Of a stretch of 62,942 nt of DNA, positions 1,681 to 61,300 are shown piece after piece. Location: NCBI GenBank assembly GCA_041663025.1, contig JBAZRE010000004.1, positions 1-62,942 on the forward strand. Direction: 5' to 3'. The stretch comes from Minisyncoccota bacterium. Lineage in GTDB: Bacteria; Patescibacteriota; Minisyncoccia; Phycocordibacterales; Phycocordibacteraceae. The position numbers were made by a program, and so were the translations under genes. The stretch's first letter is position 1, and every line of letters starts with the position of its first letter. The notes beneath the pieces were generated by a model that saw nothing but the letters and a program-made list of their open reading frames with translations, was not told the DNA's origin and did not search any database.

Positions 1681-1710
1681 GTGAATTATGGACATCGTAA
1701 GTCCATAGAT
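1681..1710. repeat. REP-like hairpin family A, copy 1 (30-nt unit GTGAATTATGGACATCGTAAGTCCATAGAT; stem TATGGAC/GTCCATA at 1687..1707)
   Basis: Identical 30-nt unit recurs at 2398..2427. Perfect 7-bp stem with a 7-nt loop. Lies 8 nt after the rnr stop codon. Confidence 0.85.
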
Positions 1711-1726
1711 GCGCTATGCTGTGGAT

Positions 1727-2401
1727 ATGGAACTTTGGCATGCGCTTAATCGCGGAGTAGACGGACGAGATTTATTCATGGACGATCGTGATCGTCTCCG
1801 CTTCATTCATGATCTTTACGAATTTGACGACACAGAACCTGCCAATCCAAACGTCGGCTATCACTTCAAATCTATGGACATCGTAAGTCCATATATCAAT
1901 AAACGGTCACGGACTCGTCTCGTTGAAATCCACGGTTGGTGTCTGATGAAAAATCATTATCATCTTCTTATGTCTGAGCTTATGGAGGGCGGTCTTTCAC
2001 TTTTTTTGCGAAAATTGAACGTTGGGTATGCAAAATCGTTCAACGAAAAATATGGACGGGTCGGGACTCTGTTCCAAAGCCGTACGAAAAAGATACTTAT
2101 CGAGAATGACGCACACTTTAATTACATTCTCCATTATATTCATCTCAATCCACTCGATTATCTTGCCGGAGCAGAGGCATGGAGAGAACGCAGTCATGCT
2201 GGAATTGCGAATGCCAAAGATGCTTTGAATTATCTTGAGCAATATCGCTGGAGTAGTTATCTGGATTATGCAGGACAAAAGAATTTCCCTTCAATACTCA
2301 CAACGTCGATTTTCAAAGACGCGCTTGGAAATTACTCGCAATCTCTTGAGGAATATCTAGTCGGAGTGACGGAAGATCAAGAATTATTGCGCTTTGAGTG
2401 A
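1727..2401 (+). CDS. RAYT-like HUH/Y1 transposase (COG1943 / IS200-like family), paralog A
   Basis: ORF 1709..2401; the likely start is the MELWHALNRG ATG at 1727, which aligns with paralog C. HUH motif NHYHLL, Tyr motif HYIHLNPL, N-terminal WHxxNRG...LF.DDxDRxRF. The TGA stop lies inside hairpin unit 2398..2427. Confidence 0.8.
   Translation: MELWHALNRGVDGRDLFMDDRDRLRFIHDLYEFDDTEPANPNVGYHFKSMDIVSPYINKRSRTRLVEIHGWCLMKNHYHLLMSELMEGGLSLFLRKLNVGYAKSFNEKYGRVGTLFQSRTKKILIENDAHFNYILHYIHLNPLDYLAGAEAWRERSHAGIANAKDALNYLEQYRWSSYLDYAGQKNFPSILTTSIFKDALGNYSQSLEEYLVGVTEDQELLRFE
1873..1893. repeat. Family A hairpin, internal copy inside the RAYT-A ORF (encodes MDIVSPY)
   Basis: TATGGACATCGTAAGTCCATA is identical to the flanking hairpins and is read in-frame. 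Confidence 0.85.
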
Positions 2402-14408: not shown

Positions 14409-14429
14409 TATCAAGGTGAGACCTTGATA
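14409..14429. repeat. REP-like hairpin family B, copy 1 (TATCAAGG-TGAGA-CCTTGATA)
   Basis: Perfect 8-bp stem with a 5-nt loop. Identical copies at 14458..14478 and 15173..15193. Confidence 0.85.
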
Positions 14430-14457
14430 TTCACCACTACAGTAATTACCGAGGCAT

Positions 14458-14478
14458 TATCAAGGTGAGACCTTGATA
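14458..14478. repeat. REP-like hairpin family B, copy 2
   Basis: Identical 21-mer, 10 nt upstream of the RAYT-B start. Confidence 0.85.
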
Positions 14479-14488
14479 TAATTACACT

Positions 14489-15172
14489 ATGCCAAACCGA
14501 GATCCTTTTGGAGTTGATGAATGGTATCACTGTTATAATCGCGGCGTTGATAAGAGGACAATTTTTGAAGATGCGGGAGACTATAACCGATTTATGTTGT
14601 TATTGTTCCTAGGGAACAGTCCTGAGCCTATTCACATAGCAAACCTGAAAGATCCAAATTTGCATATAGTGCTCAAGGATCCGTCGATAGAATACGGGGA
14701 GCCATTGGTAGAAATAGGTGCGTATGTTCTTATTCAAAACCACTTTCATCTCCTCTTAAAAGAGGTTAAAGAGGGCGGTATTGCGACATTCACACAGCGA
14801 ATTTTTACCGCATATACCATGTATTTCAACAAGAAAAATGAAAGAACTGGAGCACTCTTCGGTGGAGCCTTTAACTCTCGACATCTTGATGATGATCTCT
14901 ATCTCAAACAAGTTGTCTCCTACATTCACCTGAACACTGCAGAACTTTTTGATCCAAAATGGAAAAATGGTCTGGGAGATCTCAAAAAGATTGAAGAGGG
15001 AGTGTCTAAGTATCCTTATTCGAGTCTCCCTGACTTTTTAGGTCAGAAGCGTCCTGAACGAAAGATACTTGGCGACTCTATTTTTGAGTTGTTTGAAACA
15101 ATCCCGACATTACAAGAAATGATTAGGGACGCCAATGCATATTACGCAGAGCACCCAAAGAGTGACATGTAA
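14489..15172 (+). CDS. RAYT-like HUH/Y1 transposase (COG1943 / IS200-like), paralog B
   Basis: WYHCYNRGVDKRTIFEDAGDYNRF, HUH motif NHFHLLL, Tyr motif SYIHLNTA; 227 aa. Confidence 0.8.
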   Translation: MPNRDPFGVDEWYHCYNRGVDKRTIFEDAGDYNRFMLLLFLGNSPEPIHIANLKDPNLHIVLKDPSIEYGEPLVEIGAYVLIQNHFHLLLKEVKEGGIATFTQRIFTAYTMYFNKKNERTGALFGGAFNSRHLDDDLYLKQVVSYIHLNTAELFDPKWKNGLGDLKKIEEGVSKYPYSSLPDFLGQKRPERKILGDSIFELFETIPTLQEMIRDANAYYAEHPKSDM

Positions 15173-15193
15173 TATCAAGGTGAGACCTTGATA
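15173..15193. repeat. REP-like hairpin family B, copy 3
   Basis: Identical 21-mer that abuts the RAYT-B TAA stop. Confidence 0.85.
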
Positions 15194-15197
15194 TTTT

Positions 15198-17386: not shown

Positions 17387-19183
17387 CTACCGAACTTCAT
17401 AACCTTTTTCTGCCAGCGCAGCAGTGACTTTTTGCATAATTTCGTTCACTTCTTCATCGGTCAGCGTGCGGTCGAATGATTGGAACACGAGCCGGAAGGC
17501 GAGTGATAACTTCCCTTCTTTTTCAAAGCGATCAAACTGGTCGAGACGTACCAAAATCGCTCCCGCATTATCTTGAATGATGAATTTCGTAAACCCATCA
17601 TCAGTGCCGACCGACGACCAGAAGGCGATGTCGCGCGTGATAAATGGATAGATTGAAAATGGCTGATACATGCCGAGCTGATACTTCTGCGGCTCGTAGT
17701 TCGCGTCATCTTGTATCGCGGGCAGATCTGACACCGGTTCTGAAGTTTTGATTTCGAGTTTCTCTTCATCTTTTGTAAACACAGTTCCTATTTCAAAAAG
17801 CTTCGGTTTCTCTCCCGGCGCGAGCACCAGCGGCGCGACATACTTCGCGCGCTCCATCGCCTCTTTCATATTTTCATCCAAGCTGGTGCGCAGTGCTGGT
17901 TTTGCTTTATCGAGCGGATTCGCCAATATGATGTCGCCCTTCGCGGCAAATGACTGGGTGGAGATCTCGGTGAAGCCGCGATCAATAAGAAAGTCTTTCA
18001 CTTTTTCTATTCCCTTATATCGAGCTTGATCCGGCATGTAGGACGTCGTACGTCCTACATTAGAAATCGGAAGTTCTGCTGCAGGGAGGCGATCATAGCC
18101 GAGGATGCGCCCAACCTCTTCGACGATGTCCTCGGGTATCGTGAGGTCGGTGCGTTCGAATGGTGGAGTGATCTCGAATGTTTCGTTTTTTTCTGAGTAG
18201 GGAAGTCCGAGGCGGCTAAAAACTCCCTCCATCTCTGCTTTTGTAAAATCTGAACCGAGGATGTTGTTTATCTTCTTGAGAGAGACACTCACCTTCTGCT
18301 CCTGCACAGAGCGAGCTGGATACTCATCAACAATCCCTATGACTTCCCCACCGGCGATTTCAGAAATAAGTGCGAGGACATCGCGCATGCCGTAGGCCGC
18401 GAGCTCGGGCGATGGCCGGTTTTGAAACCGAAGTGACGCATCAGTCACCAGTTTGAGCGACTGCGCTGCGCGACGAATAGTAGTGCCATCAAAATTTGCC
18501 GATTCAATAATAATGTCAGTGGTAGTCTCGTTAATTTCTGCCGCCTTACCTCCCTTCACACCCGCAATGCCGATTGCACTGTCTGCATTGGCATCAGTGA
18601 TGAGCAACACATTCTTCGGCAACACATATTCTTCACCCGATAGAATCGTCATGGTCTCACCATCTCTCGCATCGCGAACCTTGATTGCATACGCATCATT
18701 TTCTTTTTTCAGTTTTGCCGCATCAAAAGCGTGCAGCGGCTGGCCAATGTTGAGCATCACATAGTTTGTCGCATCGACGACATTGTTTATCGAACGCTGC
18801 CCCACTGCCTCGAGCGCTTCGCGCAGCCAATCAGGCGATGGTCCAACCTTTACATCCTTCATGAGTGCTCCCATATACCGTAAGCACTTTTTTTCATCTT
18901 CAATCTCTACCTTCAAATAAGGGTTTACGAGACCCTTATTTTCAACTGGCGTGCGGAGGGGATCGCTCTTCATTGGTATATTCAAAATCGCAGAGAGTTC
19001 TTTAGCGATGCCGCGATGACAGAGACAATCTGCTGCGCGATTTGGCAATACGTTCAGATCAAGCAAATCCCCTTTTCTTTCTTCTATTTCAAATGCATGA
19101 AAAGTGAATGCATCGTCTGTCTGCTCTGCCGGAGGCAATGGTTGATCAAAATATGTCTGAAGCCATTTTAGTGAGACTTTCAT
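17387..19183 (-). CDS. pheT: Phenylalanyl-tRNA synthetase beta subunit (short form, 598 aa)
   Basis: MKVSLKWLQTYF start, B3/4 and B5 regions, C-terminal FDX-ACB-like domain. 4-nt overlap with pheS. Confidence 0.85.
   Translation of the reverse strand: MKVSLKWLQTYFDQPLPPAEQTDDAFTFHAFEIEERKGDLLDLNVLPNRAADCLCHRGIAKELSAILNIPMKSDPLRTPVENKGLVNPYLKVEIEDEKKCLRYMGALMKDVKVGPSPDWLREALEAVGQRSINNVVDATNYVMLNIGQPLHAFDAAKLKKENDAYAIKVRDARDGETMTILSGEEYVLPKNVLLITDANADSAIGIAGVKGGKAAEINETTTDIIIESANFDGTTIRRAAQSLKLVTDASLRFQNRPSPELAAYGMRDVLALISEIAGGEVIGIVDEYPARSVQEQKVSVSLKKINNILGSDFTKAEMEGVFSRLGLPYSEKNETFEITPPFERTDLTIPEDIVEEVGRILGYDRLPAAELPISNVGRTTSYMPDQARYKGIEKVKDFLIDRGFTEISTQSFAAKGDIILANPLDKAKPALRTSLDENMKEAMERAKYVAPLVLAPGEKPKLFEIGTVFTKDEEKLEIKTSEPVSDLPAIQDDANYEPQKYQLGMYQPFSIYPFITRDIAFWSSVGTDDGFTKFIIQDNAGAILVRLDQFDRFEKEGKLSLAFRLVFQSFDRTLTDEEVNEIMQKVTAALAEKGYEVR
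18036..18060. repeat. Family C palindrome inside pheT (ATGTAGGACG-TCGTA-CGTCCTACAT), read in-frame as VGRTTSYM
   Basis: 10-bp arms identical to those of the copies around RAYT-C. Confidence 0.85.
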
Positions 19184-19917
19184 AACGGCTTCTCATTAAA
19201 TGCATGATTAAAACGAATATCGCCCGAATAAAATGGCCGTATATCAGGGACGCCATATTTGACCATGATGAAACGTTCCAAGCCAGGACCAAAAGCAAAT
19301 CCTTGAATCTTTTCTGGATCAAGTCCTGCGTTGCGTAACACGTTTGGATGCAACATTCCCGCGCCGCCTGTCTCGAGCCATTTCCCTTCTTTCCCAGGAG
19401 GTTGGAACCAAACATCAATCTCGATACCTGGTTCAACAAAGGGGAAGAAGCTTGGACGAAAACGGGCTTGAGTATTTGGTCCGAGAAATTCCTTATAGAA
19501 ACGCGTCAAAGTCCCCTTGAGATGGGCGAGCGTCACCACGCCGGTTGGACCAACTGCAAACCCGTCAAATTGATAAAACTGCGCCTCGTGCGTCGCATCA
19601 GTCGCTTCATTACGAAAGACTTTTCCGGGACTTAACATTCGTTTCGTGGTCTCGCCATTCTTCGCCATCTTCTCGAGTTCGCGAATAGTGACGGAAGTAT
19701 CGTGCGTCCTAAGAACCTTACCTGGATGATCCTTGATCCAAAAAGTATCTTGCATATCGCGCGCTGGATGGTCGGCAGGGACATTGAGCGCACTGAAGTT
19801 GTACCATTCTGTCTCGAGTTCTGGGCCAGAAGCGATATCAAATCCCATCTGGCCAAAGATGTCAGCAATGTCGCGAATGGCAATCGTGATCGGGTGAAGT
19901 CTACCTTGTTGGCTCAT
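19180..19917 (-). CDS. pheS: Phenylalanyl-tRNA synthetase alpha subunit (short form, 245 aa)
   Basis: Class II core motifs FRPSFFPFVEPGIEIDV and GAGMLHPNVL. The usual N-terminal coiled coil is absent. Confidence 0.88.
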   Translation of the reverse strand: MSQQGRLHPITIAIRDIADIFGQMGFDIASGPELETEWYNFSALNVPADHPARDMQDTFWIKDHPGKVLRTHDTSVTIRELEKMAKNGETTKRMLSPGKVFRNEATDATHEAQFYQFDGFAVGPTGVVTLAHLKGTLTRFYKEFLGPNTQARFRPSFFPFVEPGIEIDVWFQPPGKEGKWLETGGAGMLHPNVLRNAGLDPEKIQGFAFGPGLERFIMVKYGVPDIRPFYSGDIRFNHAFNEKPL

Positions 19918-19945: not shown

Positions 19946-21202
19946 ATGTGCTATAGTTGTGCCAATATGAGCCCTGAGATGTTGGCATACCCTTTCCTCC
20001 TTATCGCGATATTCTTCGAATCGTTTATTCTCGTGACGCTGATCTCGAAGCCTGCTATGACAGCGAGAAAGCGTGTTCCAGGTGATAAGACCCTCTCGGT
20101 TGCTGTCATTGTGCCTTGCTATAACGAGGCAACCACAGTTGCGAAAACATGCGAATCGCTCTTGGCGCTTGAATATCCAAAAGAACTCCTCGAAATTATT
20201 CTCGTTGATGATGGTTCCACTGACGCGACGCCAACTGCCATGACACACTTCGCCTCGCATCCGCAGGTGCGCATTATTCGCAAAGAAAACGGTGGAAAAC
20301 ATACCGCGCTTAACGCTGGCATTGCTGCTACTCATGCCGAAATTGTCGGATGTCTCGATGCTGATTCGTTTGTTGAGTCGGATGCCCTTCGCGAAATTAT
20401 CCCTTGCTTTGCAGACGCGCAAATTGCTGCGGTGACTGCGGCGATGTCGGTGCATCATCCAAAAACTTTCATCCAGCATATGCAGAATGCCGAATACATC
20501 TTCGGTATTACACTCCGACACGCTCTTGCTTCGATCAATGGACTCTACGTTACGCCTGGACCTTTTTCCTTCTATCGACACAGCATTATTGATGAGCTTG
20601 GCGGATTCAGACATGGTCATCAGACCGAAGATATGGAAATGGCACTCCGCATTCAACAAGCGGGATATGGGATTGAGAACGCACCGCGCGCTCGCGTCTA
20701 CACCAAGGCACCAAGCACGCTCGGAAAGTTATTGAAACAGCGTACCAGATGGACTACCGGTTTTCTCCGCAATATTTTGGGTGAATATCGCGGACTTGTA
20801 GGCAACCGTTGGAATGACGCACTTGGTGTACTCGTCCTACCGACTGCACTCATTGCCGTAGGGAGTAGCATTCTCCTATTCTCAACTACAGTCTTTACCT
20901 TTACACGCAACGCTATAACTGCGTTAGAGATTCGAGCTGGAATCCCAATCTCGTATGTATTCTCGGCGCACCGGTCGTTTGATTGGTTTTATTTCCCTAC
21001 AAGTGTCTATCTGCTTCTTGGGGCCGCAACGCTGATGATCTCGCTTTTCCTCATCACAATCGGTAAGCACATCTCAAAAACCCCCGGGAACCTTACGCTC
21101 GGTTTTATTTCGTATACATTGCTCTATGGCCTTGTCGTACCTCTCTGGCTCCTGCGCGCCACGGTCGACGTTACTATTGGCAAACATCGTCAATGGCGTT
21201 GA
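19946..21202 (+). CDS. Membrane-embedded family 2 glycosyltransferase (processive synthase type)
   Basis: VIVPCYNE, VDDGSTD, LDADS and QRTRW motifs, flanked by TM helices. Confidence 0.8.
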   Translation: MCYSCANMSPEMLAYPFLLIAIFFESFILVTLISKPAMTARKRVPGDKTLSVAVIVPCYNEATTVAKTCESLLALEYPKELLEIILVDDGSTDATPTAMTHFASHPQVRIIRKENGGKHTALNAGIAATHAEIVGCLDADSFVESDALREIIPCFADAQIAAVTAAMSVHHPKTFIQHMQNAEYIFGITLRHALASINGLYVTPGPFSFYRHSIIDELGGFRHGHQTEDMEMALRIQQAGYGIENAPRARVYTKAPSTLGKLLKQRTRWTTGFLRNILGEYRGLVGNRWNDALGVLVLPTALIAVGSSILLFSTTVFTFTRNAITALEIRAGIPISYVFSAHRSFDWFYFPTSVYLLLGAATLMISLFLITIGKHISKTPGNLTLGFISYTLLYGLVVPLWLLRATVDVTIGKHRQWR

Positions 21203-33481: not shown

Positions 33482-34960
33482 ATGAGGAATATGTGGCTGC
33501 CGGTCGTGTCTGCCCTCGCGGGCATTGTCGTCTTCTTGCCGATGAATTTTTATCCGGCGGCTTTCGTCTTTCTCATTCCACTTTTTATCTTCTTCTTGCG
33601 AGAAGAGAAGCTGTGGCGACTGGTTGTTGGGGCTCTTTTATTCCGCTTGATCTTCTCCATGGGTACAGTTTATTTTACTCTTGAGCCAATCCTCTGGATT
33701 TCTTCTCTTCTCATTTTTTGCGGCCTGCCTCTCTCAATCTTCTTCTTCAAAAGACTCATCTTCAAATTTGCGGACACGGAGTGTCCGCAAATTCCTACCT
33801 CCTGCTCCTGCCTCCTGCTCGTTTCCTTGCCTTTCTTATGGACCTTCTTTGACCTCGCGCAAGCGCAGTATTCTCTTGCACCGATTTATATCGCCAGCGC
33901 CGGCAACGCACTCGGCTCTTCGCCATTTCTTGGGCTGGCAGCTCTCGGCGGGTTCGTCGTGCTCACTTTCTTCGTCGTGCTCATCAACTCACTTCTCGCA
34001 ATTCTTGTTCTGATCTGGCGGCGAAACCCCCAAGTTGCTTGGGGGTTTCGCCGCCAAGTGATTTATGTTCTGATTGCAATTATTGTTCTCCTTTTTGCTG
34101 GCTGGCAAATTGCAAGCTTCGAGCTGCGCCAGAATGCCATTGCTTATGCCGCCCTGCCGAACTCAATCAACATTGCCGCCATTTCTACCAATGGAACACT
34201 TGCTGTCGACCAGCTTGCACAACTCACACAAGAATTGGCCGGCCAGCAACTTGATCTCATCATCTTCCCCGAAGATATCCTCAACCAGCATGTAGGACGT
34301 CCGACGTCCTACATGCTGGGAAACAGCTCGACTGCTGTGTTTCAAGATCTTGCGAAAGAACTTAGCACAAATGTCCTCGCGAGCTACGACACGCTTCAAG
34401 GTACTACCAGCACATTAAAATATGGCTCGACAATCTTGTTTGACCAACAAGGAAGCATTGCCGGCATCCACAACAAAAACCGCCTCACATTCGCAGGCGA
34501 ATACTGGCCTTTCGGCAATTGGCACCCGTCTTTTTACGACTGGCTGAAGACACGGAATCCGAGCATTGGAACCTATGCAATCTTTGACCAGAAGAATGCA
34601 GACACTCCGGGCGAGCAGAATCTGCTCTCATTGGCGCTCGGAGAAAACACCGTGTCTTTTGCCGCACCCATCTGCTTGGAGATTCACTATCCGACTGATT
34701 TGGCAGCATACCGAACGCAAGGCGCGCGCTTCATAATCAACCCTTCAAGTAATCGCTGGATCGGCGGTGGTCTCTCGCATTTCTTATATCTCACAACCAA
34801 TGTAAAAAAAATAGAAAGTGTTGCTCTCCAACTGCCGATTATTTCAAGTGGCGTTGATGACTTCGCCGGCATTATTCTTCCGAATGGACAATCACAGATG
34901 CTTCCCTACCAAACAACTGGCAAAACCTACAACGTATTTTTCGGCACTGTCAGATATTAG
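33482..34960 (+). CDS. lnt: Apolipoprotein N-acyltransferase-like protein (polytopic N-terminus + CN-hydrolase domain)
   Basis: Multiple TM helices followed by IIFPEDIL (Glu), HNKNRLTFAGEYWPFG (Lys) and APICLEIHY (Cys), which resemble the Lnt E-K-C triad contexts. Confidence 0.65.
   Translation: MRNMWLPVVSALAGIVVFLPMNFYPAAFVFLIPLFIFFLREEKLWRLVVGALLFRLIFSMGTVYFTLEPILWISSLLIFCGLPLSIFFFKRLIFKFADTECPQIPTSCSCLLLVSLPFLWTFFDLAQAQYSLAPIYIASAGNALGSSPFLGLAALGGFVVLTFFVVLINSLLAILVLIWRRNPQVAWGFRRQVIYVLIAIIVLLFAGWQIASFELRQNAIAYAALPNSINIAAISTNGTLAVDQLAQLTQELAGQQLDLIIFPEDILNQHVGRPTSYMLGNSSTAVFQDLAKELSTNVLASYDTLQGTTSTLKYGSTILFDQQGSIAGIHNKNRLTFAGEYWPFGNWHPSFYDWLKTRNPSIGTYAIFDQKNADTPGEQNLLSLALGENTVSFAAPICLEIHYPTDLAAYRTQGARFIINPSSNRWIGGGLSHFLYLTTNVKKIESVALQLPIISSGVDDFAGIILPNGQSQMLPYQTTGKTYNVFFGTVRY
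34286..34318. repeat. Family C palindrome, 33-nt perfect copy inside the lnt-like gene (encodes HVGRPTSYM)
   Basis: CAGCATGTAGGACGTC-C-GACGTCCTACATGCTG, read in-frame. Confidence 0.88.
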
Positions 34961-37015: not shown

Positions 37016-37040
37016 ATGTAGGACGTCCGACGTCCTACAT
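37016..37040. repeat. REP-like palindrome family C, copy upstream of RAYT-C (ATGTAGGACGTC-C-GACGTCCTACAT)
   Basis: Perfect 25-nt palindrome, 18 nt upstream of the RAYT-C start. Confidence 0.88.
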
Positions 37041-37058: not shown

Positions 37059-37736
37059 GTGGAACTTTACCATGTGATAAACAGAGGGGTTGAGGGGCGT
37101 AATATTTTTCTTGATACGCAAGATTATTCGCGTTTCGTTCATGATCTTTATGAGTTCAATGACACTGCTCCAGCACTTGAATTCAATCATGCAATCTCTC
37201 GCGGTTCAAATGTAGGACGTCCGACGTCCTACATTCGTAAACGACTCGTAGACATTCATGGTTGGGAATTGATGAAAAACCATTTCCACCTTTTGCTTTC
37301 GGAGTGTATCGAAAATGGAATAACACTCTTCTTAAGTAAGATGAGTGGTTATGCGAGATACTTCAACGAACGACACGAGCGACATGGACATCTCTATCAA
37401 GGAAAAACAAAGAAAATACTTATCGCGCAGCAAGAGCATTTTCTTTATGCGCTTCATTATCTTCATTTAAATTCTCTTGATTATCTTCCTGGCGCAAAGA
37501 AGTGGCGTGAACGTGATAAAGGCATGATATCGGATATACCGAAAGCACTGGACTACCTCCAAAATTATCGTTGGAGCAGTTATCCAGACTATTGCGGCAA
37601 AAAGAATTTTCCATCAATCCTCACTACATCGCTTTTTGCTAATGCCTTTGGCACTGATTATGCATCTGCTCTGAAAGAATATCTGACGGATCGAATTACC
37701 AATGAAGATTTAGAATACATAGAATTTGAGCCGTAG
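37059..37736 (+). CDS. RAYT-like HUH/Y1 transposase (COG1943 / IS200-like), paralog C (GTG start)
   Basis: (M)ELYHVINRGVEGRNIFLDTQDYSRF, HUH motif NHFHLLL, Tyr motif HYLHLNSL. Closest to paralog A. Confidence 0.8.
   Translation: MELYHVINRGVEGRNIFLDTQDYSRFVHDLYEFNDTAPALEFNHAISRGSNVGRPTSYIRKRLVDIHGWELMKNHFHLLLSECIENGITLFLSKMSGYARYFNERHERHGHLYQGKTKKILIAQQEHFLYALHYLHLNSLDYLPGAKKWRERDKGMISDIPKALDYLQNYRWSSYPDYCGKKNFPSILTTSLFANAFGTDYASALKEYLTDRITNEDLEYIEFEP
37209..37233. repeat. Family C palindrome inside the RAYT-C ORF (encodes NVGRPTSY)
   Basis: Identical 25-mer, in-frame, at the position homologous to the family A hairpin inside RAYT-A. Confidence 0.88.
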
Positions 37737-37740
37737 AATC

Positions 37741-37765
37741 ATGTAGGACGTCGGACGTCCTACAT
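37741..37765. repeat. Family C palindrome downstream of RAYT-C, overlapping the fba stop codon
   Basis: ATGTAGGACGTC-G-GACGTCCTACAT. The last fba codon (ATG) and TAG stop (37760..37765) lie inside it. Confidence 0.88.
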
Positions 37766-52308: not shown

Positions 52309-55300
52309 TCATGTTGTAGCTGACGTGTCAGCAGGCACGACATCAGCTCCGACGCTTTCGGTCGGAGTCCCGACTTCTGACGTCGGGACAGGAGGCGGAG
52401 CCGCGGGAGCAGTGGGTTCGACAGTCTCACCGTGAATGACGGTGATGAGGCGCGAGGCGGTGCCGATATTCCCTGCCGCATCGGTCGCGGTGTAGGTGAG
52501 GGTGTAGAGTCCGGCGGTTGAAGTATCGACTGTGCCCGTCACGATCGGCATTATTGATCCATCTGTGTCATCAGCTGCAGTCGCGCCAGGATCGGTGAAG
52601 ACATCGCCAACGGTAATCTGCATCGCTGCATCTCCATTGAGCGTTACCACGGGCGATACCGTATCCGGATTTAAGGTTTGATCCAGCTGTAGCGGGATCG
52701 AACCTTGGTTATCGGAATCAGTCTGACTTCCACCCGCGCCCGAATCCGAAGCGCCAACAATGACCGAGCGCATCGCAGTCGAGCTATTCCCTGCCGCATC
52801 CTTCGCTTCATAGGTGATGAGATAGGTCGTCGGGCTAGCAGTGTCTATCGTCGCTGTAGAAACCTCTTGTTGCACACCATTTATATAGGTAGTGACCGAA
52901 GGATTATTGTCGATATCATCGACAACTGTCACACCTGGATCGGTGAACGTATCACCGACCGAGAGGCGCACCGGATTGTCACCGAGCAGAGTAATCACTG
53001 GCGGCGTCGTATCTCTTTCATTGGAAATTGAAAATTGTGAATTGGAAATTTCTGGCGGCGTGCTCGTCGCCACCTGACCCTCGGTCTGGACGAGGAAGTA
53101 GTCGAAGGAGACGTCGCTCTCTTGTGGCGCAGAGAGCACGAGCTTGAAAGATCCCTCCTTCTTGTCGCTGATGAACCACGAGCCCGTGGTTGAGGCGGTC
53201 AACGTCACGAATATCTTGGTTGTCGGCTTCACGTAGGCGTTCTCAACCTGCGCGACGGTGTTGCCGGCGAGAATGTTGACTGTACCAGCAGAGCTGCTGC
53301 CCTCAGAATTGGTCGCGGCGACGAATCGGTCGGCAATCAGCGTGCCAAACTGCGCGATGCCATTGCTTATGAACACTCCGAATGCGTTAAACGCGCTTGC
53401 GAGTGTTGAAGTGGAGAAGGTAACTGGTGAGTCGCTCGCTGTTGAGACTTCACCATTCTCGAGCGCGGAGACGCGCGCCTCAAGCGAGGTGAGGCGCATC
53501 TCGTGTGCATCAACCTTCGCCGCGAGATCATACACACCAGAGAGCGTGTAGGTCGCGAGCTTGTAGATATCAACGCCATTGCCGTCGGCCGTCAGAACAT
53601 CTGGAGATGTAGTGGAAGCAAAACCTCCAAGTAGACTTGAGATGTCACCTCTGACTGGCACAATAAATTCGTTTGCACTAACCGCACCGCTCACGTTGAA
53701 AGCATCCAGACTTAATTTATCAATCGATTGTTTGACCATCGCCTGCACTTGATCTTCAATCTTCATATTGGCGACGCGGTCTGCGACCATGCTCTCAACC
53801 TGTTCAACCACCAAGCTCTTGTTGCGACGAGAAATCAACACATTAATTTTGCCTTCGCCCTCTGCCAATGGCTCGAGCGCGACGCCCACAGTCGGATCGC
53901 CCGGATCAGCGCGCATCACGTATCCCGGCGTTGAAGATGCCGCGGTGAGCGAGTCGCCGGATATGATTGGCCCATTCTCCGCGCTCACGAACGCCGGAAT
54001 CTGACCGAGCATAGCGATGAGCTTGTAGTTCGGATTATTTTTATATTCCTCCTTCGCGTTCCCGATGAAGCCCGGCTTTGTGGAGACGATGCCCATCAGA
54101 TTATTATCCGCAGCACGATCGCAACGCTTCACCGCATTCTTCTGGCTCGTGTCAACACAGACTGCCTCGCCAGATTTCAAATCGATGTCGTCAGTGTAGA
54201 AATATTCGGCGTAGTCAGCGCTGCCGGACTGCAAGGCGACCGGGCTGTAGATACTGCCGTCAGCGCGCACATCGCCGTAGCCGGTAACACGGAAGATGGC
54301 GCCGGACGTCGTGGTGGAAATAACGAATGCATCAGAATTATCGGTTACGCTACTCACCACCGACAATCTGGCATATGGGCTGGTGGTGCCGATGCCCACA
54401 TTACCCAAAGAATCAATGACCATCGCCTGATCGCCGCCGCCGATAGTGGTGGTGGCGTTCGTTACCGATGGCGCGATGGTCAACCCGCCCAAGCTGTTAA
54501 CGGTAAAGTTCGCATAATTGGTGGTGTCATATGCCAACGTCAGCTGGGCGCCGACGCTTGAGGCGATAGAGAGTCGCGACATCGGCGAGCTCGTGCCGAC
54601 GCCGACATAGCCGCTGCTTAAAATCGTAATGTCTTCGCCCGATGTTCCATTCCCCATGCTAAATCTGCCGCTATGTTCCCATATTCTAAAGTCCGCATCT
54701 TCACCGCTTGCATCGTTAAAGTCTATAAGTCCGCCAGAACTGCCATAGAGCTGCATGCCCGCATAACTTGAGATTATCCCCAAGAAAGCTCCTTGAGCAG
54801 TCGGCATATTGCCAGTCCCAAGATCTCCAACTACATGGAGAGGTGAGAGTGGATCTGCCGTCCCGATGCCGACGTTCCCGCTTGTTTGTTGAACCACAAA
54901 TTTATTCGTTCCGATGGTCAAACCATTAGCAAAGGTTGATGTCGCCGTACCAGAACTCAAGCCGAGAGATCCGTCGGTAGAAGAGATTCCTGTGCCCGTG
55001 AGATACAGCGAGCCAGTACCGACCTTCAAAGTACCCATGACGTGCAGATTGTTCTCAATGGTTGAGGTCCCTGTCCCGCCCACATAGAGTCTGCCCGATG
55101 TGGAGAGAGATTCGGCAGGCGAGGTGGTGCCAATTCCGACGTTTCCATTCGCCAACACGGTCATAAAGGTTGAAGTGGCCGTACCGTTGGTGGTTGAGGC
55201 AATCGTGAAGAGCGGCGTGTTGGCGGCGGTGGTTCTGGAGTTTGAAATGGAGAGAAGAGAACCAGGGGTCGTAGAGCCCAAACCAATTCGGCCGGTGGCG

Positions 55301-58300
55301 AAGTCACCGTAGATGAGTGGAGTGGTGGAGGAGTTGGCAAGATAGAACTTGTTAGAGCCGGTCTCGAAGTAGCCAGCCTCATTGCCAATGAAGACGTTGC
55401 CAGAACCAAGAGCGCTAAAACCGGCCGACATGCCCAAGGCAACATTATAGCTACCGGTCTGGTTATTAAATAAACTACCCGCGCCAAAAGCGGTATTTAC
55501 TTGACCGGTAGTGTTATTCGGCAAAGCGAGAAATCCAAAAGCAGAATTATTTTCCCCGGTGGTATTTAAGTTAAGTGCATTACCGCCGAAAGCGCTGTTG
55601 TAGGAGCCGATTGTATTGGACAGAAGGGCATCACTTCCAAACGCATTGTTATAACTACCTGTTGTGTTTGATCCGAGAGCACCAGCTGTATCACCTGTAC
55701 CAAAAGCGTTGTTATAGCTACCCGTGCTATTAGAGCCTAGACTGGAGCCACCAAAAGCGCTGTTGTAGGAGCCGACGGTATTAACTCCCAAAGACATCAT
55801 ACCAAAGGCGCTATTGGCATTACCATTGGAATATTCCAAAGCCATTCCGCCGAAAGCACTATTTGAAGAGCCAGTTGTATTCGATTCAAATGCGCCTGCA
55901 CCAACCGCGGTATTGAACAGACCAGCAACTGTACCTCCATCCGGCATATTGCTCATGCCGGCGTTAGCACCGATAAATATATTGGTGTTCCAACCCAACG
56001 TGTCAGCGCCCGAGCTCCTCATTTCAAAACCAGTAGTGCCATCAGAATTTAAGAGAGTGAAGACAGGACTGGTTTGGGTAAGTTTCTTAACTGAAATAGC
56101 GTCAATGTATCCGTCGAAGTCTGTACTTGGGGTAAATATAAGATTGTCGGTGGTTTGGGCGGTAACAACCTCATACACATATCCTCCATCGACAATAGAA
56201 TAAGAATTCTGGCAATCAGTTCCGCCAAGAGAGCAGGTAACTGTACCCGTGCCGTTGAGTGTCTCTATGTAGAATGTAATCACATACGTCTCTCCGGCGA
56301 CTGCAGAAACATCCTGTTCTAGAGTCGCGATATTGCCCGGCGTATGCACCTCCCAATCATTGACTCCATCATATGACCAGCCGGCGCCAACGGTCCAGCC
56401 GGTATCGTTGGTGTTAAAACTGCCGTTAGTAACTTTTTCTGTGCCAAGTGTGGCTTCGGTGTTGGTGCCTTGGATAGATAGCTTAGCGGCTGGTGCAGAT
56501 GTGCCAATCCCTATATTCCCATTCGCCAAGACGGTCATGAAGGTTGAGGTTGCCGTTCCGTCGGTTGTAGAAGCAATGGTAAAGAGCGGCGTGTTGGCGG
56601 CAGTGGTTCGTGAGTTAGAAATGGAGAGAAGTGAGTACGGAGACGTTGTGCCAATTCCGACGAGACCGAGATTCACCATGTTGAGACCACCAGCATCGTT
56701 GCCCGCGCCGAGAGTTGAGGCGAGAGTATCGATGACATTTCCGCCAGCGCCTCCACCAACGCACGTTCCATTGATTGAGAAGCAACCACCATTCATGAGA
56801 TCAATACCCTTCGCATAGGAGGTGGTGGTGGCGTTGTCGAAGAAGTTCCAGCCGGTGCCGGTGCCGCCGATAGAGAGAAGTGAGCCTGGAGAGGTGGTGC
56901 CGATACCTACATTCCCGCCGTTCGTAACGATGAAGTTCGTTGCAGTTGATGACCCGACCACAAATTGCGGCGTGCCAGCGCCAAGGGCGTTCCCATTGAT
57001 TGAGAGCAAACCCCAAGGCGAGGTGGTGCCGAATCCGGCAAGGCCGTTATCTTGAAGCTTGAACAATGTCGTTGACGCGCTGTTCGCGAATTCAACCGTG
57101 GTGCTACTTGTCGAGCTCCGACCGAAGACGTTGAACATTGCGGTTGGCGGCGTTGAAGATCCGATGGTGACACCGTTTGAATAGGTGGAGCTCGCTCCGT
57201 CAGACAATCCATAGACCATTATCATGGGGTTGCCGCCGAGGTATGCGGTGTAGGATTGCGGGACACCCGCCACGACTGTATCGATAGGTACATCAGTCCA
57301 CTGAACCATACCTGCATTCGTGTCAAATGATTGCGTGCCGGAGATCAGGCTGCTGATTGATGTCTCGCCAGTCGAGAAGTCGCTGACGAATGCACCGCCG
57401 TTCACACTCAAGCCGCCTGCGAAAGTCGAGGTAGCGGTGGCGTTATCAGCATTGAAGTTCGCTCCGGCGATGAGGCCGCTGACTGAGAGGAGCGCATACG
57501 GCGAGGTGGTGCTGACACCGAGATAGCCGTTTGGATCAATCGTGAGCGCCGACATTGAGGAGGTGGCGAAAGTTAGCGGGCTGGAAGTAGCTATATAAAG
57601 GTATCCTCCGGCATTGCGGAATGTCCATTTGTTTGACGAGAGCGATGAATCGCCGAGCGCGAATTGCGGAGCCGTTGAGGTTGAAAGTTGGAATAGCCAT
57701 TGTGGAGTGGTTGTGCCGATGCCAAGATACGTGCCCGTGTCGTAGATCAGAGAATTATTGAAGGTACTGCCTCCCCATTTTGGCAGATAATTGGTAGTGA
57801 GAGATGAAACCGTGGTGGAGCCGAGAAGACCGAGAGATGAAGTGGCGGTGAGTGTGTATCCGCTGGAAGCGTTGCCGAGGAGGAGTTGACCGTAGGATGG
57901 CAGAGATGTTAATCCAGTGCCGCCATACATCACGCCGATGGAGGTGGTGGCTTGCCAAGTTCCGTTGGCAACGCTGATTGGGCCGTTCAAAGCAGATGAG
58001 TTAAGACCCGTGCCTCCATAGACATTGCTGATGGCAGTGCCATTCCAGATTCCCTCTTTCACCGTGCCAGTTGTGTCAATGCGGAATGCGTTGCCGGCAG
58101 TGCCGACTGAGAAGAGTGAGAATGGTGATGTGGTGCCGACACCGAGATTACCATTGATAGCCAAGCCGCCCTGATACAGATTGTTTGGCGGAGTGATATT
58201 CGAATCTGCTTTGCCAGAGGTCATTACCGCTGAAGCGGTATTAGCGACGGCGACAAATGTGCCATTGCCGTAGGCGACTCCCTGCCATGTATCGGCAGGA

Positions 58301-61300
58301 GAGGTTCGGAGTTTCCAAGTTGCGCCATCGGGAGAAGTCATGACGAAGTTATCAGAACTGACCGCGACATATAAACCGTTACCGTAGGTAACTGAATTCC
58401 AGACATTGCTCGTAGCACCTGCGTGACCCGTCCACGCTGTGCCATTGGGCGAGGTCATGACAACATTTGCCCCGCCGTCAGTCGAGACTGCGACGAAGAG
58501 GCCGTTGCCGTAGGTGACAGACTTCCACCAACCAGACGCGCCGAGACCAGCTTGTGGTGTCCATGTCACTCCGTCAGGTGAAGTCATAACTCTGTTATCA
58601 CCAGAGAGAGCGACGGCGACGAAGAGGCCGTTGCCGTAGGTGATGCCCTGCCAGCTGTTGTCCTCGGCACTTGCTTGGAGTGCCCATGTGATGCCGTCGG
58701 GAGAAGTCATCACATGATTGGCTCCGCCGTCACTCGAGACCGCGACGAATGTTCCGTTGCCATATGTGACAGACTTCCAATTGTTCGCGGCGGCTGCAGT
58801 TCTGCTGGTCCAGGTGGCGCCGTTTGGCGAAGTCATGACGAAGCCGTCAGTAGAGACTGCGACGAAGAGACCGTTACCGTAGGTGACTGAGCCCCATATC
58901 TTATCTGCGGCGCTTGTTCTCGTGGTCCAATTGATGCCGTCGGGCGAAGTCATGACTCCTGTGCTAACGCCAGACGTAGATGAGGCAACAGCGACGAAGA
59001 GGCCGTTGCCGTATGTGATGCCCAACCACTTGTTGCTCACCGAAGCAGTTCGCGCCGTCCACGATGTTCCCTTTGAAATGATGTTGCCAACGACCTCTAA
59101 CTTCTCTCCCGGGGTCGCCGTGCCGATGCCGACCGTGCCATCATTTTTCACGATGAATTGCGTTGTCGTTGCAAATGATGCAACGCTCGAGAGCTGGAAG
59201 AGCGGCGCACTGCCATCATTCACACCAGCGACATCGAGAATCGCCAGAGGAGAAGTTGTGCCGATGCCGAGATTCGTGCCGACGTTGTTGTAGAGATTTG
59301 AGCCAGAAGAAGTCCAATAGTTCGTACCTTCAATCCCGGTGAGTGTCGAGCCATCAAATGACAATCCAGTACCGACGACGAGTGACTTGATGAACGATGA
59401 GCCGTTACCGACGAGGATGCCGCCGAGTGGTGTGCTTGATGCAGTACCACCCGAGCTGATGCCAAGCGCAGAAGCTAATGTGACAGCACCGTTGGAGCTA
59501 ATGGCGAGTGCTGGGATGGTGCTGGTGGCATAGGCATCAGAGCTCGTACCTATATATAGGTTCCCGCCCATCGAGGAGAAGAGCCAGTGCTTGAGGTTGG
59601 CTCCTGCACCCGAGTCGGACAAAGCAATTTGAGCCTTACCTCTTGAGGCGACTTGGAGATTCCATGCTGGGGTGGTGGTGCCTATACCGACATTACCGCC
59701 TCTTTGGAGATACATGACATTACCACCGTTAGCTGACAACCCAAGATTACTGCCCGTGCCATCATCATATCTATATAGACCAGTATTGTTTCCACTATGA
59801 AATGATATCCCAGGTGCTGACGCAGTTCCGTCTCCAAAATATGCGACTCCACCATTTACATCCAACTTCGCCCCGGGATTCGCCGTCCCAATCCCCACAT
59901 ACCCATTCGCGAGGACGGTCATGAAGGTTGAGGTCGCAGTGCCATCGGTTGTTGAAGCGATAGTGAAGAGCGGCGTGTTGGCGGCGGTTGTTCTGGAGTT
60001 GGAGATGGAGAGGAGTGAGTATGGTGAAGTAGTGCCGATGCCGACGTTGCTCGCGCTTGAGATAAAGAGCGTTGAAGTGCCGATGGCGGTGTTCGCGCTG
60101 CTGAAATATGCAATCTGGCCAAGGGAGCCAGAGAGAGTGGCGGATCCGCCTCCGCCAAAAGTTGAAGTTGCCACATAGTCATAACCAGTGCCGGCGGCGT
60201 TGCCTACCAGCACTTGCCCGTACGCCGGCAGAGCGGAAACGCCGGTACCACCTGAGCTGATGCCAAGCGCAGAAGCCAGAGTGAGTGCACCATTGCTGTT
60301 GATGGAAAGTGCCGGGATGGTTGAAGTGGCATATGAATCAGAAGATGTGCTGATGTAGAAGTTGCCGCCCATGGATGAGAAGAGCCAGTGCTTGAGGTTT
60401 GCTCCGGCGGACATATCCGAGAGGGCGAACTGCGTTTTGGTACTTGAGGCGATTTGGAGATTCCATTGCGGCGTCGTGGTGCCGATGCCTATGACGCCGG
60501 AGGGATTGGAAACAAGCGCGGTTGAAGTCGCCGGAAGCGTACCGAAGATGATACCGCCAATGTTTAACTGGTTGTTACCAGTGGCGTTTGGGAAGAAAGT
60601 GTTGTAGCCAATTCCAATATTATTGCCTCCACTGGTGAGGTTGCTTACAGTGTCTACATTTGCTCCCAAGAGAATGTTGCCAAATCCTGTACTTACCTCA
60701 CGACCTGCTTGGTAACCTATTAACGTATTGTAGTCAGAGCTGTTTCCGGACTTTAGACCTGCGCCGAGACCGATATATACACCTCCTTGAGTCGTAATGG
60801 GACCGCTCCACGCTCCTCCAGCAGTATTCCCGATTGCCACCCCGTTAGTCATATTGTTGTAGTTGGCAGCTGTAGCACCGATCGCTACACTGTTTGAACC
60901 TGTAGTATTTGTTAACAATGCAGAAGAACCAATCGCCGTATTTGAAGTGCCAGAAGTATTCGCTGTAAGGGCATTCGCTCCAATTGCTGTATTACCGATA
61001 CCAGTATTCGCTGTAAGCGCCTTATACCCAATAGCGGTTAAAGACAAATTCGGACCTGGGCTTGTAGTAGCGGTATTCCCGGCAGAAAAACCAAAAATGG
61101 TGGAGGAATTTGTTGTCGACGCATAGCCAAGCAAAAGGCCGTCTTGGCGGTAACCAGAGTATTGATTAACGTTGATGAACCCTGCTACGTCGAGTTTATA
61201 ATCGGGCGCCGACGTCCCAATCCCGAGATTTCCAGTTGATGAGATGAAGATTGTTGAGGTTGCTTGCGCGACACCAGCATCATTGCCGACCAAGAAGTTC

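Follow-up and report, generated by a model that had tools for sequence, protein, structure and literature searches.

An in-frame REP-type palindrome in pheT of a Patescibacteria genome and its candidate cognate RAYT

Described palindromic repeats and the element in pheT

REP/RAYT (TnpA-REP) systems, reportedly described by Nunvar in 2010 and by Bertels and Rainey in 2011, are the closest counterparts of the palindrome family analyzed here, which we call family C. The RPEs of Rickettsia also invite comparison, although they belong to another phylum, show no sequence similarity to family C, and fall into a different length class: RPE-1 is ~100 to 150 bp long, whereas a single family C element spans 25 to 27 nt and a dimer 54 nt. 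To our knowledge, RPEs have no associated transposase gene. As portrayed in the relevant passages of PMC3733652 (citing Ogata et al. 2000), RPEs are palindromic repeats lying in frame in essential genes of a reduced-genome bacterium, where they add surface peptide segments to proteins that retain their function. Family C resembles this picture, being likewise placed in frame in protein-coding genes, at positions that structural models predict to lie on the surface.

In-frame intragenic REPs are already known, both from the Rickettsia RPEs and from Di Nocera, De Gregorio and Rocco 2013 (PMC3733652). The passages of that paper on intragenic elements describe GTAG- and CGTC-tagged REPs, as singles and dimers, in frame in genes for known proteins, many of them, as here, replication and repair genes (uvr genes, polymerases), and they explain the insertions as tolerated in modular or peripheral regions, which is also our reading. 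In each of those families, unlike in family C, the smaller part of the copies is intragenic, and the same passages do not report a single reading frame, recurrent lineage variants at an orthologous site, or a copy inside the RAYT. What is unexpected here is that the same pheT position is filled by each lineage's own variant and that the palindrome inside the RAYT tracks the copies that flank it.

Among REP/RAYT "REPtrons", family C most resembles those of group 3 (Stenotrophomonas maltophilia REPSm; PMC8266576), with which it shares a short perfect palindrome, a 3-nt loop, and GTAG directly before. As in REPtrons, a Y1/HUH transposase homolog has its own palindromes on either side and is inherited vertically in synteny, a genome carries several palindrome families with a single RAYT each, inverted dimers occur (REPIN/BIME-like), and loop sequences are lineage specific. 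Family C differs in other respects: classical REPs are extragenic, whereas ~69% of family C copies lie within ORFs; the GTAG of family C is base paired with CTAC, which places GTAG plus hairpin on both strands; every homolog examined here has a copy inside the RAYT ORF; and the RAYT is ~225 aa long, with a long C-terminal extension, and borderline at Pfam and NCBIfam thresholds. REPs typically number >100 per genome; here, 5 copies, 3 of them at the RAYT, were counted in 63 kb of one genome, and the MAGs are fragmentary. We found no paper in the literature on REP/RAYT in Patescibacteria.

The element in pheT, ATGTAGGACGTCGTACGTCCTACAT, is a 25-nt palindrome with perfect 11-nt arms and a 3-nt loop (Table 1), built on the family layout AT-GTAG-GACGT-NNN-ACGTC-CTAC-AT; sister variants carry GTGG, GTTG or GTCGG in place of GTAG. 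An earlier note on this DNA had placed the palindrome in frame within pheT and read it as (N)VGRTTSYM. Both points are borne out, since the element lies inside the 598-aa minus-strand ORF and the predicted translation runs ...ELPIS-NVGRTTSYM-PDQ..., the peptide occupying aa 375-383 of PheT. The note was also right that one frame contains TAG (one frame per strand does so) and that all three coding copies in the window, by which we mean the whole 62,942-nt stretch analyzed, use one open frame, VGR(P/T)TSY, in pheT, the lnt-like ORF, and the RAYT-C ORF. Its claim that either orientation yields the same peptide holds except at the loop codon, which reads ACG (Thr) or CGT (Arg) in one case and CCG (Pro) or CGG (Arg) in the other.

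By a search that left the 5 central bases free and allowed ≤3 mismatches, we found five family C copies in the window (starting at 18036, 34290, 37016, 37210, and 37741) and none in 100 dinucleotide-preserving shuffles. The pheT hairpin has a folding energy of -11 kcal/mol as single-stranded DNA (z = -5.4). We rejected an assembly artifact, as independent ENA, JGI, NCBI, and Logan assemblies contain the same structure. We also rejected as a family copy an isolated GTAGGACG at 20833-20840, a single 8-mer that lacks a partner arm, ~1 such match being expected by chance.

Table 1. Positions and readings of the palindromes and associated genes in the window
Feature	Position	Strand	Description
pheT	17387..19183	-	Phenylalanine-tRNA ligase beta subunit; 598 aa, full length, domain set complete
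Family C REP palindrome in pheT	18036..18060		ATGTAGGACGT-CGT-ACGTCCTACAT; minus-strand reading N-VGRTTSY-M
Second pheT palindrome	18915..18941		AAATAAGGGT-(7 nt)-ACCCTTATTT; read NKGLVNPYL, aa ~82-90
pheS	19180..19917	-	Alpha subunit; directly upstream of pheT, same operon; Pfam tRNA-synt_2d E = 3e-84
Family C REP copy in lnt-like gene (33482-34960, +)	34285..34319		17-nt arms; read HVGRPTSYM
Family C REP copy	37016..37040		18 nt upstream of RAYT-C start; loop CCG
RAYT-C, Y1/HUH transposase-like gene	37059..37736	+	225 aa; YHVINRG ... NHFHLLL ... HYLHLN
Family C REP copy inside RAYT-C ORF	37210..37234		Read NVGRPTSYI, aa 51-59
Family C REP copy	37741..37765		4 nt past RAYT-C stop; loop CGG

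Filled and empty sites in PheT orthologs

The pheT ORF carries the Pfam domains B3_4, B5, tRNA_synthFbeta/CLM, and FDX-ACB and scores 408 bits against the NCBIfam pheT_bact cutoff of 402. Mapped onto the PheRS structure, as the earlier note had proposed, the family C site falls between domains B5 and B6, close to residues 476-486 of the T. thermophilus beta subunit. The AlphaFold model gives coil with a pLDDT of <50 at this site, and the palindrome-encoded segment is predicted to lie in a disordered inter-domain linker. The second palindrome in pheT resembles a family B REP, with a 7-bp stem, an xTCGTAA loop, and three compensatory pair changes; its hairpin energy is -7.7 kcal/mol (z = -4.3), and the AlphaFold pLDDT is <50 at residues 81-84 in this region.

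PheT orthologs were aligned. A short 5-aa loop with no palindrome is present in ~105 of 120 close orthologs and in all of the ~70 readable pheT loci at a greater distance, and the empty sites were also confirmed at the DNA level. The comparison of these sequences therefore shows that the palindrome is derived rather than ancestral. The orthologs share the consensus loop ELP-PISGT-PDQ, over which the window PheT has a net gain of 6 residues. The insertion of 7 to 8 aa that the earlier note had envisaged is therefore upheld as a derived loop segment and not as a clean addition of 7 to 9 aa, since 9 codons are touched and the net gain is 6 residues; this gain also differs from the inferred 9-codon unit discussed below, which counts against our preferred explanation.

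Similar peptides occur at this site in several orthologs (P0095, P0045, P0120, P0028, P0006, P0012, and P0002), and wherever the corresponding DNA could be obtained, a perfect or near-perfect palindrome encodes the peptide. This is the reverse of the case that the earlier note had named as refuting, in which orthologs devoid of family C elements would have the same peptide. The same position is filled in at least five scattered lineages, each with its own variant and with changes matched in both arms. Lineage L003 has the identical 25-mer (25/25) in a pheT ortholog of 66% protein identity, whereas L006 has GGACAT / ATGTCC arms, L001 has GTCGGGAC / GTCCCGAC arms, and L007 has TTGGACAT arms, the variant that flanks a Y1_Tnp gene on the same contig. 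The orientation of the element at this site flips between lineages. These observations bear on the possibility that NVGRTTSYM is ordinary PheT sequence, ancestral or selected as protein, and that its palindromic DNA is a coincidence or by-product. The similar peptides in several orthologs speak for it, but the palindrome is perfect with third codon positions included, the 25/25 DNA identity joins proteins only 66% identical, the same 25-mer recurs in unrelated genes and in noncoding DNA, and most orthologs lack it; we regard this possibility as negligible.

The nearest available PheT ortholog is 76% identical, and no empty site is available in a close relative. A metagenome scan for pheT relatives listed mostly distant orthologs of 32 to 68% identity; empty sites were confirmed there, and no close pair of filled and empty sites was present among the matches listed. 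We considered a single ancestral insertion followed by losses and rejected it because the empty-loop consensus PPISGTPDQ is kept across the two major clades as well as in orthologs further away and because removal of 27 nt from the window pheT would not restore it. In addition, the nearest neighbors of palindrome carriers are noncarriers. For these reasons we favor several gains at the pheT site, although the neighbor-joining tree is poorly resolved. Spread of a pheT segment by recombination was also rejected, as the DNA around the identical 25-mers of the window and L003 is dissimilar.

RAYT-C and the wider family

RAYT-C lies 19 kb from the pheT copy. The earlier note had labeled it a RAYT, and that label fits well: residues H75, H77, and Y134, the HUH histidines and tyrosine, are invariant in 30 RAYT homologs and paralogs, and the sole Pfam match is Y1_Tnp, at 18.9 bits (below the cutoff of 23), compared with 23.5 for the paralog at 1709 in the window and 30.3 for the homolog in L007. 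A Foldseek search of the PDB with the AlphaFold model (pLDDT 64.8) returned Y1 transposases as all of the top 26 matches, including 2a6o and 2xqc (IS200/IS605: IS608, ISDra2) and the E. coli RAYT 4er8 (E = 3e-3, probability 1.0), so that the predicted fold resembles IS608 TnpA and the E. coli RAYT. The RAYT profile matched a single PDB sequence, that of ISDra2 TnpA, marginally (E = 0.8), which, like the Pfam score, counts against our preferred explanation. Together with the flanking palindromes, the sequence and the modeled fold indicate that RAYT-C is probably a Y1/HUH tyrosine transposase homolog cognate to the family C palindrome.

The copy downstream of RAYT-C is inverted relative to the upstream and internal ones and overlaps the 3' end of a fructose-bisphosphate aldolase ORF. 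We found 1621 RAYT-C homologs; the internal palindrome position is filled in 120 of the 120 examined, always at one codon position and with each homolog's own palindrome, which changes in step with the flanking copies. The AlphaFold pLDDT is <50 at RAYT-C residues 39-54. The flanking-palindrome layout recurs in at least 10 other genomes and at two further RAYT genes in the window, each with its own palindrome; the three window genes are paralogs with 32 to 55% identity. L141 has a RAYT ortholog in the same L25-RAYT-aldolase synteny as the window, and the palindromes before, inside, and after this gene are all of the GTCGGGAC variant. Thus, between syntenic orthologous loci the variant changes in concert at three RAYT-associated positions. 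Family C resembles IS200/IS605 elements (IS608, ISDra2) in the predicted transposase fold, in the hairpins that flank the gene, and presumably in chemistry on single-stranded DNA. It differs in that the gene with its hairpins is not multicopy, RAYT-C being single, syntenic, and at the same locus in the window and L141, and in that only the hairpin is dispersed.

Family C was found in 52 DNA stretches, nearly all labeled Patescibacteria. Across 25 Patescibacteria sources, 53 of 77 copies were internal to ORFs (of at least 120 aa), so that the family is mostly intragenic in this group, and all 53 were in the VGRxTSY frame and none in the CRT frame. A mechanism, and not selection, could lie behind this restriction to a single frame. 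The hosts are housekeeping genes, among them gltX, alaS, a class I aaRS gene, dnaX, holB, uvrC, trmD, tsaD, tgt, and a cysteine desulfurase-like gene; the copy in the lnt-like gene of the window is extra relative to its closest orthologs. Fragmentary MAGs contain up to 10 exact-arm copies each. In four MAGs, the loop triplet was genome specific (10/10 ACC/GGT, 8/8 ACT/AGT, 8/8 ACG/CGT, and 5/5 GCA/TGC) even though copies occupy orthologous gene positions. In the window, however, the loop is CGT/ACG in the pheT copy and CCG/CGG in the other four; the pheT copy is not homogenized with them, which counts against our preferred explanation.

Tandem dimers span 54 nt (18 codons) with inverted loops, loop flips are seen at fixed positions, and in ~40% of copies the palindrome is bordered by additional inverted flanks that vary in sequence. 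When the 77 copies were oriented by the middle base of the loop and 16 nt were tabulated on each side, we found no conserved insertion target in the flanks; only the A/T completing the 25-mer and, at position -2, an avoidance of T stood out. The flanks were unrelated or inverted, and we recognized no direct repeats or target-site duplication. The earlier description of the element as REP/MITE-like is therefore supported in its first part only: the element is of the REP type, but it is a single hairpin, and apart from its own arms we recognized no terminal inverted repeats.

Origin of the palindromes

We consider it probable that the pheT palindrome is one copy of a REP-type family that has RAYT-C as its cognate enzyme, and we infer that the family's mobility is RAYT driven. 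By homology with TnpA(REP) and IS200/IS605 transposases, the RAYT would bind the hairpin on single-stranded DNA, cut beside it, and rejoin the strands, whereby copies could be made, replaced, or flipped. The 54-nt dimers, the sole direct evidence of length, suggest a single unit of 27 nt (9 codons); as a multiple of three, such a unit would keep the downstream frame on insertion into a gene. Purifying selection would then leave only copies outside the TAG frame and in tolerant surface loops, where they would be read as the hydrophilic, glycine-containing x-V-G-R-x-T-S-Y-(M/I). In PheT, the outcome would be a 9-residue segment in the B5-B6 linker of an enzyme that presumably still works.

The hairpin might instead be a selected nucleic acid signal, kept because it is useful, with only an incidental link to the RAYT; candidates are an mRNA structure by which ribosomes are slowed at the B5/B6 boundary, a site of RNase action or processing, and a binding site for a DNA-binding protein. 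Such a role would agree with the filling of one position, at a domain boundary, in at least five separate PheT lineages, with the symmetric changes that keep the arms perfectly complementary, and with the stability of the RNA hairpin in context (-29.9 kcal/mol over 97 nt, z = -3.25). A useful signal would not be expected to be missing from ~105 of 120 close orthologs and all distant ones, to flip its orientation between lineages, or to recur unchanged in many genes that have nothing in common, without a preferred kind of position, as well as between genes beside the RAYT. No T-run follows the palindrome in pheT, so it is not an intrinsic terminator. We therefore think a selected signal very unlikely.

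Somewhat less improbable, yet still unlikely, is that these are real repeats that the RAYT does not move. They would stay at old positions, kept perfect by replication template switching in quasi-palindromes, in which one arm is copied onto the other, and homogenized by short-patch gene conversion; the RAYT would be a domesticated protein with a different role or just one more host gene with a copy. Intramolecular template switching yields symmetric arm changes and loop flips, as observed here at fixed positions; the variable extra inverted flanks of ~40% of copies are consistent with palindromes extended in place, and the divergent loop of the pheT copy and a RAYT that is syntenic and vertically inherited rather than hopping fit as well. 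However, template switching works within one copy and leaves unexplained both the loop triplet and arm variant shared genome-wide and the scattered gains in pheT at a site that is conserved in its empty form. With 25 nt of homology, gene conversion is inefficient, and the pairing of three RAYT paralogs each with a different palindrome is a signature of protein-DNA coevolution. We accordingly prefer a REP-type family with a cognate RAYT.

The pheT site looks long-lived. Its lineage-specific variants, together with the concerted change at the RAYT locus, suggest that the current master sequence of a genome either rewrites the copies at fixed positions or re-seeds them. That a vertically inherited RAYT keeps doing this at fixed positions in essential genes and in its own ORF is a tentative idea that we hold to be rather doubtful. 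The copy inside the RAYT could then act as feedback on the enzyme's own gene. If such rewriting or re-seeding does occur, short loops of PheT, AlaRS, GluRS, and clamp-loader subunits would coevolve with a domesticated transposase, and translated mobile DNA would undergo site-faithful concerted turnover, as opposed to occasional tolerated insertions.

If the REP-type reading is correct, the small, gene-dense genomes of Patescibacteria host REP/RAYT systems whose repeats lie mainly inside essential genes, and what is known of RPEs in Rickettsia would carry over to a bacterial group that is both very large and very different. The copies would show where core enzymes have loops that tolerate insertions in nature and would explain some low-confidence segments in CPR proteins and some lineage-specific indels in phylogenetic marker genes. 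How RAYTs disseminate and maintain REPs is still unresolved (Corneloup et al. 2021, PMC8266576), and lineage-specific variants at one and the same site would offer a tractable route to this question.

Context and ancestry of the pheT palindrome

The host ORF is identified as pheT by its Pfam domains (B3_4, B5, a catalytic-like module and FDX-ACB) and by a match to NCBIfam pheT_bact above cutoff, and pheS lies directly upstream. By the names of its best protein matches, the source is a Patescibacteria bacterium (Paceibacterota / Kaiserbacteria-like). Its translation bears out the earlier note's claim that a copy of family C, a 25-nt REP-type palindrome, lies in frame inside the gene and is coding, residues 375-383 of PheT being N-VGRTTSY-M. 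As also claimed, the palindrome has a TAG in one frame, once on each strand; the open frame other than this VGR frame would give CRTxxVLH (the CRT frame). As single-stranded DNA, the hairpin of this copy has an energy of -11 kcal/mol (z = -5.4). Searching the window with the five central bases free and at most three mismatches tolerated, we found five family C copies, starting at 18036, 34290, 37016, 37210 and 37741, and none in 100 dinucleotide-preserving shuffles of the window.

In an alignment of the best 120 PheT orthologs (61-76% identical), the position of this copy (site 1) is taken in ~105 by ELP-PISGT-PDQ or something close to it, with a five-residue loop, and palindromes of any kind were absent there from all of the ~70 more distant pheT loci readable at this position among the metagenome matches listed; we inspected the empty site in DNA as well as in protein. 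The palindrome in pheT is therefore a derived state. The proposal of a 7-8-aa loop insertion thus stands as to its derived nature, but not as a clean addition, the loop having 11 residues in the window versus 5 in the consensus, a net gain of six. Mapped onto PheRS structure, site 1 aligns after domain B5 of the Thermus thermophilus beta subunit (approximately residues 476-486 of 2iy5_B), and AlphaFold modelling of the window PheT (mean pLDDT 73.9) shows residues 366-385 as coil with pLDDT <50, lying between the final helix of B5 and the initial one of B6.

Features of the window and of site 1 in orthologous loci
Feature	Position	Strand	Description
pheT	17387-19183	minus	598 aa; host ORF of the family C copy
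Family C in pheT (site 1)	18036-18060		ATGTAGGACGT-CGT-ACGTCCTACAT; 11-nt perfect arms, 3-nt loop
Second pheT palindrome	18915-18941		AAATAAGGGT-7 nt-ACCCTTATTT; in frame, NKGLVNPYL, aa about 82-90
RAYT-C	37059-37736	plus	225 aa
RAYT paralog (Y1/HUH, RAYT-like)	1709-2401		TATGGACATCGTAAGTCCATA at 1687, 1873 (internal) and 2404; unit 1687-2424
RAYT paralog (Y1/HUH, RAYT-like)	14489-15172		TATCAAGGTGAGACCTTGATA at 14409, 14458 and 15173; unit 14409-15195
lnt-like gene	33482-34960
Palindromes in lnt-like ORF	33765-33793; 34016-34056		13-nt arms; 19-nt arms
Long ORF	52309-62451	minus	3380 aa, single ORF
Site 1, L003			identical 25-mer; protein 66% identical to window PheT
Site 1, L004 and L005			arms as in window, loop AGT
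Site 1, L006			ATGTAGGACAT-CCG-ATGTCCTACAT; one arm G to A, other arm C to T
Site 1, L001			ATGTCGGGACGT-CGT-ACGTCCCGACAT; closest ortholog (76%); different frame, CRDVVRPDM
Site 1, L007			TTGGACAT-CCG-ATGTCCAA plus inverted partner
Site 1, L008			palindrome with 21-nt arms

Recurrent palindromes at fixed pheT positions

Palindrome-like peptides occur at exactly site 1 in 8 of the 120 orthologs. For seven of these carriers we retrieved the DNA, and all seven loci have palindromes there, which is the opposite of an ancestral peptide free of such elements. In all eight cases (seven loci and the window), a single base separates the right end of the palindrome from the conserved CCN-GAY-CAR (PDQ) codons. 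The variant in L007 pheT recurs on the same contig as AACTTGGACATC-N-GATGTCCAAGTT flanking a Y1_Tnp-type gene. A neighbour-joining tree does not group the carriers together, and the sequences nearest to them lack the palindrome (for P0028, the five closest sequences, 79-80% identical, are all empty, and the closest carrier is 72% identical). On these sequence relationships, one nucleotide position of pheT would have gained or lost a palindrome on at least five or six separate occasions. A non-palindromic insert, TTCGACTCCGCTCAGGGTAAA (FDSAQGK), is also found at exactly site 1, for example at 7123-7145 of L061; inserts of this type are present in seven scattered orthologs (P0005, P0013, P0029, P0030, P0043, P0114 and P0117), related peptides (FDKLTAG and LDSARDK) occur elsewhere in pheT orthologs, and they look like another family of short in-frame elements.

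The second pheT palindrome resembles the family of the RAYT gene at 1709: its stem has 7 bp, its loop is xTCGTAA, and three pairs show compensatory changes. Some orthologs have palindrome-encoded peptides of many other kinds there (PMWDVVRPTSL, PMWDLGGPTSL, NRDIVSPYL, GTYDVPTSL and QGSTL...KVEPC) and others have plain PEFPKTDAL. Since the region is about as long as in palindrome-free orthologs (+1 aa), this palindrome seems to have replaced sequence here, not to have been added to it. The DNA behind PMWDVVRPT is ATGTGGGACGT-CGT-ACGTCCCACAT, which is a sister of family C with GTGG; its reading frame is the one in which family C has its TAG stop. The pLDDT at PheT residues 81-84 is also <50. In L039 pheT, site 1 is empty and a family C copy occupies a third site.

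Family C and the RAYT genes

RAYT-C, the cognate gene of family C, has the motifs YHVINRG...NHFHLLL...HYLHLN, and its H75, H77 and Y134 are invariant in 30 homologs and paralogs. Its sole Pfam match, Y1_Tnp (PF01797), falls short, at 18.9 bits, of the cutoff of 23 that one window paralog and the L007 homolog pass, and NCBIfam REP_Tyr_transpos matches weakly. Secondary structure in the AlphaFold model (pLDDT 64.8) runs beta-alpha-beta-beta-alpha-beta-alpha, as in Y1 transposases. When the model was compared with the PDB by Foldseek, the best 26 matches were without exception Y1 transposases, among them IS608 TnpA, ISDra2, IS200 and 4er8, the Escherichia coli RAYT bound to a REP hairpin (E = 3e-3, probability 1.0). 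On all of these grounds, RAYT-C is a Y1/HUH transposase homolog.

Family C copies lie 18 nt upstream of the RAYT-C start, inside the gene (NVGRPTSYI) and 4 nt past its stop. Among 1621 database relatives, most without a name, the best 120 all have a palindrome-encoded peptide at one internal position, with co-varying arm residues (NVGRTTSYI, HVGRTTSNM, NVGRTTSHI, NVGLPKSYI, NVGHPMSYI, NVGPPRSYI and MSGRTTSRH). Both window paralogs likewise pair each with its own palindrome: the copies around the 1709-2401 gene are spaced 186 and 531 nt apart, as in family C, and the 14489-15172 gene, with two copies upstream and one downstream, is syntenic together with its palindrome beside gyrB in L001 and L007. 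The RAYT ortholog in L141 shares the order ribosomal protein L25-RAYT-aldolase with the window and has ATGTCGGGACGT-NNN-ACGTCCCGACAT, the variant of L001 pheT, at all three RAYT-associated positions; because these are fixed by synteny and codons, the palindromes there have changed in concert. About 7 kb from this RAYT, at 17243-18484 of L141, four clustered copies of another palindrome, AAATGTGGACTT-NNN-AAGTCCACATTT, surround small ORFs.

An exact search for TGTAGGACGTNNNACGTCCTACA in one genome per species gave 52 DNA stretches, nearly all labelled Patescibacteria MAGs. One Omnitrophota (L010) and one Chloroflexota (L032) label occurred, both on contigs carrying family C, which could reflect mis-binning or horizontal transfer; L032 has a full RAYT unit 74% identical to that of the window. 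We tallied 77 copies, window and pheT loci included. The single open frame proposed for coding copies held for all internal ones: 53 lie inside ORFs of ≥120 aa in the xVGRxTSYx frame and none in the CRT frame. Eight CRT-frame copies at ORF edges are most likely just outside the real coding sequence, three edge copies are in the VGR frame and 13 have no long ORF. Host genes include tRNA-related ones (GluRS, AlaRS, class I aaRS, TrmD, TsaD and queuine tRNA-ribosyltransferase) and those for DNA polymerase III gamma/tau and delta', UvrC, a class V aminotransferase, methyltransferases and a surface protein, and several sites are orthologous between MAGs (e.g., alaS, holB, gltX and tgt). The surface protein (L021; Ig-like and Peptidase_S74 domains) matches the C-terminal part of the long window ORF with 38% identity.

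The copy in the lnt-like gene is extra relative to the closest orthologs; in one ortholog, P0245, the corresponding residues are HVGRGTSN. Two more perfect in-frame palindromes, of other sequence, lie in this ORF. The 41-nt one (WRRNPQVAWGFRRQ) gives ~7-8 residues more than orthologs in a cytoplasmic loop; its outer arms encode WRRN...RRQ, which resembles the loop of the orthologs and could mean that one palindrome is nested within another, older palindrome.

The loop triplet is genome specific in four MAGs (10/10 ACC/GGT, 8/8 ACT/AGT, 8/8 ACG/CGT and 5/5 GCA/TGC), and its orientation at a given position varies between genomes. Some copies form tandem dimers of 54 nt in which the loops are inverted (L011 5554, L015 6140, L025 3840, L029 1083, L046 4668, L052 7535, L056 3966, L058 3281 and others); their translation, in holB, gltX, tgt, tsaD and methyltransferase genes, is CRDVVRPTSDVGRTTSYM. 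The first unit of these dimers is a hybrid of left arm ATGTCGGGACGT and right arm ACGTCCTACAT, in which one base is bulged; after a spacer of 3 nt comes a perfect family C unit whose loop is inverted. Approximately 40% of the 77 copies (L003-L060 and the window) have 3-12 extra complementary bases outside the 25-mer, site specific in sequence and far more frequent than chance, which could arise if copies inserted at the tips of small palindromes already present, or if palindromes grew in place.

Proposed spread and maintenance of intragenic copies

The palindrome in pheT is of the REP type, RAYT-C being its cognate gene. Homology, and the close match between each RAYT lineage and a single palindrome variant, suggest that the RAYT would act on the palindrome. 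Selection would have filtered many insertions, which fits the dimer length (a multiple of three, as is the 27 nt inferred from it for a single unit), the disordered loops and the use of one frame exclusively, although the last may instead be a mechanistic bias. Two results point to site-faithful replacement or re-seeding: lineage-specific variants recur at site 1, and the RAYT-associated positions change in concert. Template switching within a copy could keep arms symmetric and flip loops, but it cannot make all of a genome's copies agree. Cutting the other way, the window pheT copy (loop CGT/ACG) has not been brought into line with the four other window copies (CCG/CGG), which counts against replacement or re-seeding.

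In-frame intragenic REPs are on record for families tagged GTAG or CGTC, where genes of replication and repair are over-represented as hosts, and the Rickettsia RPEs are the classic case (PMC3733652); translation of a REP within an essential gene is therefore of a kind already known. Family C has the form of group 3 REPs, in which GTAG stands directly before a short, perfect palindrome whose 3-nt loop is decisive for RAYT recognition (PMC8266576). A full-text literature search for REP, RAYT or REPIN in Patescibacteria, Parcubacteria or CPR found nothing relevant. What appears to be new is that the majority of family C copies are intragenic, that internal copies use one reading frame, that all RAYT homologs examined harbour an internal copy in their ORFs, that copies at fixed positions change in concert and that the hosts are Patescibacteria.
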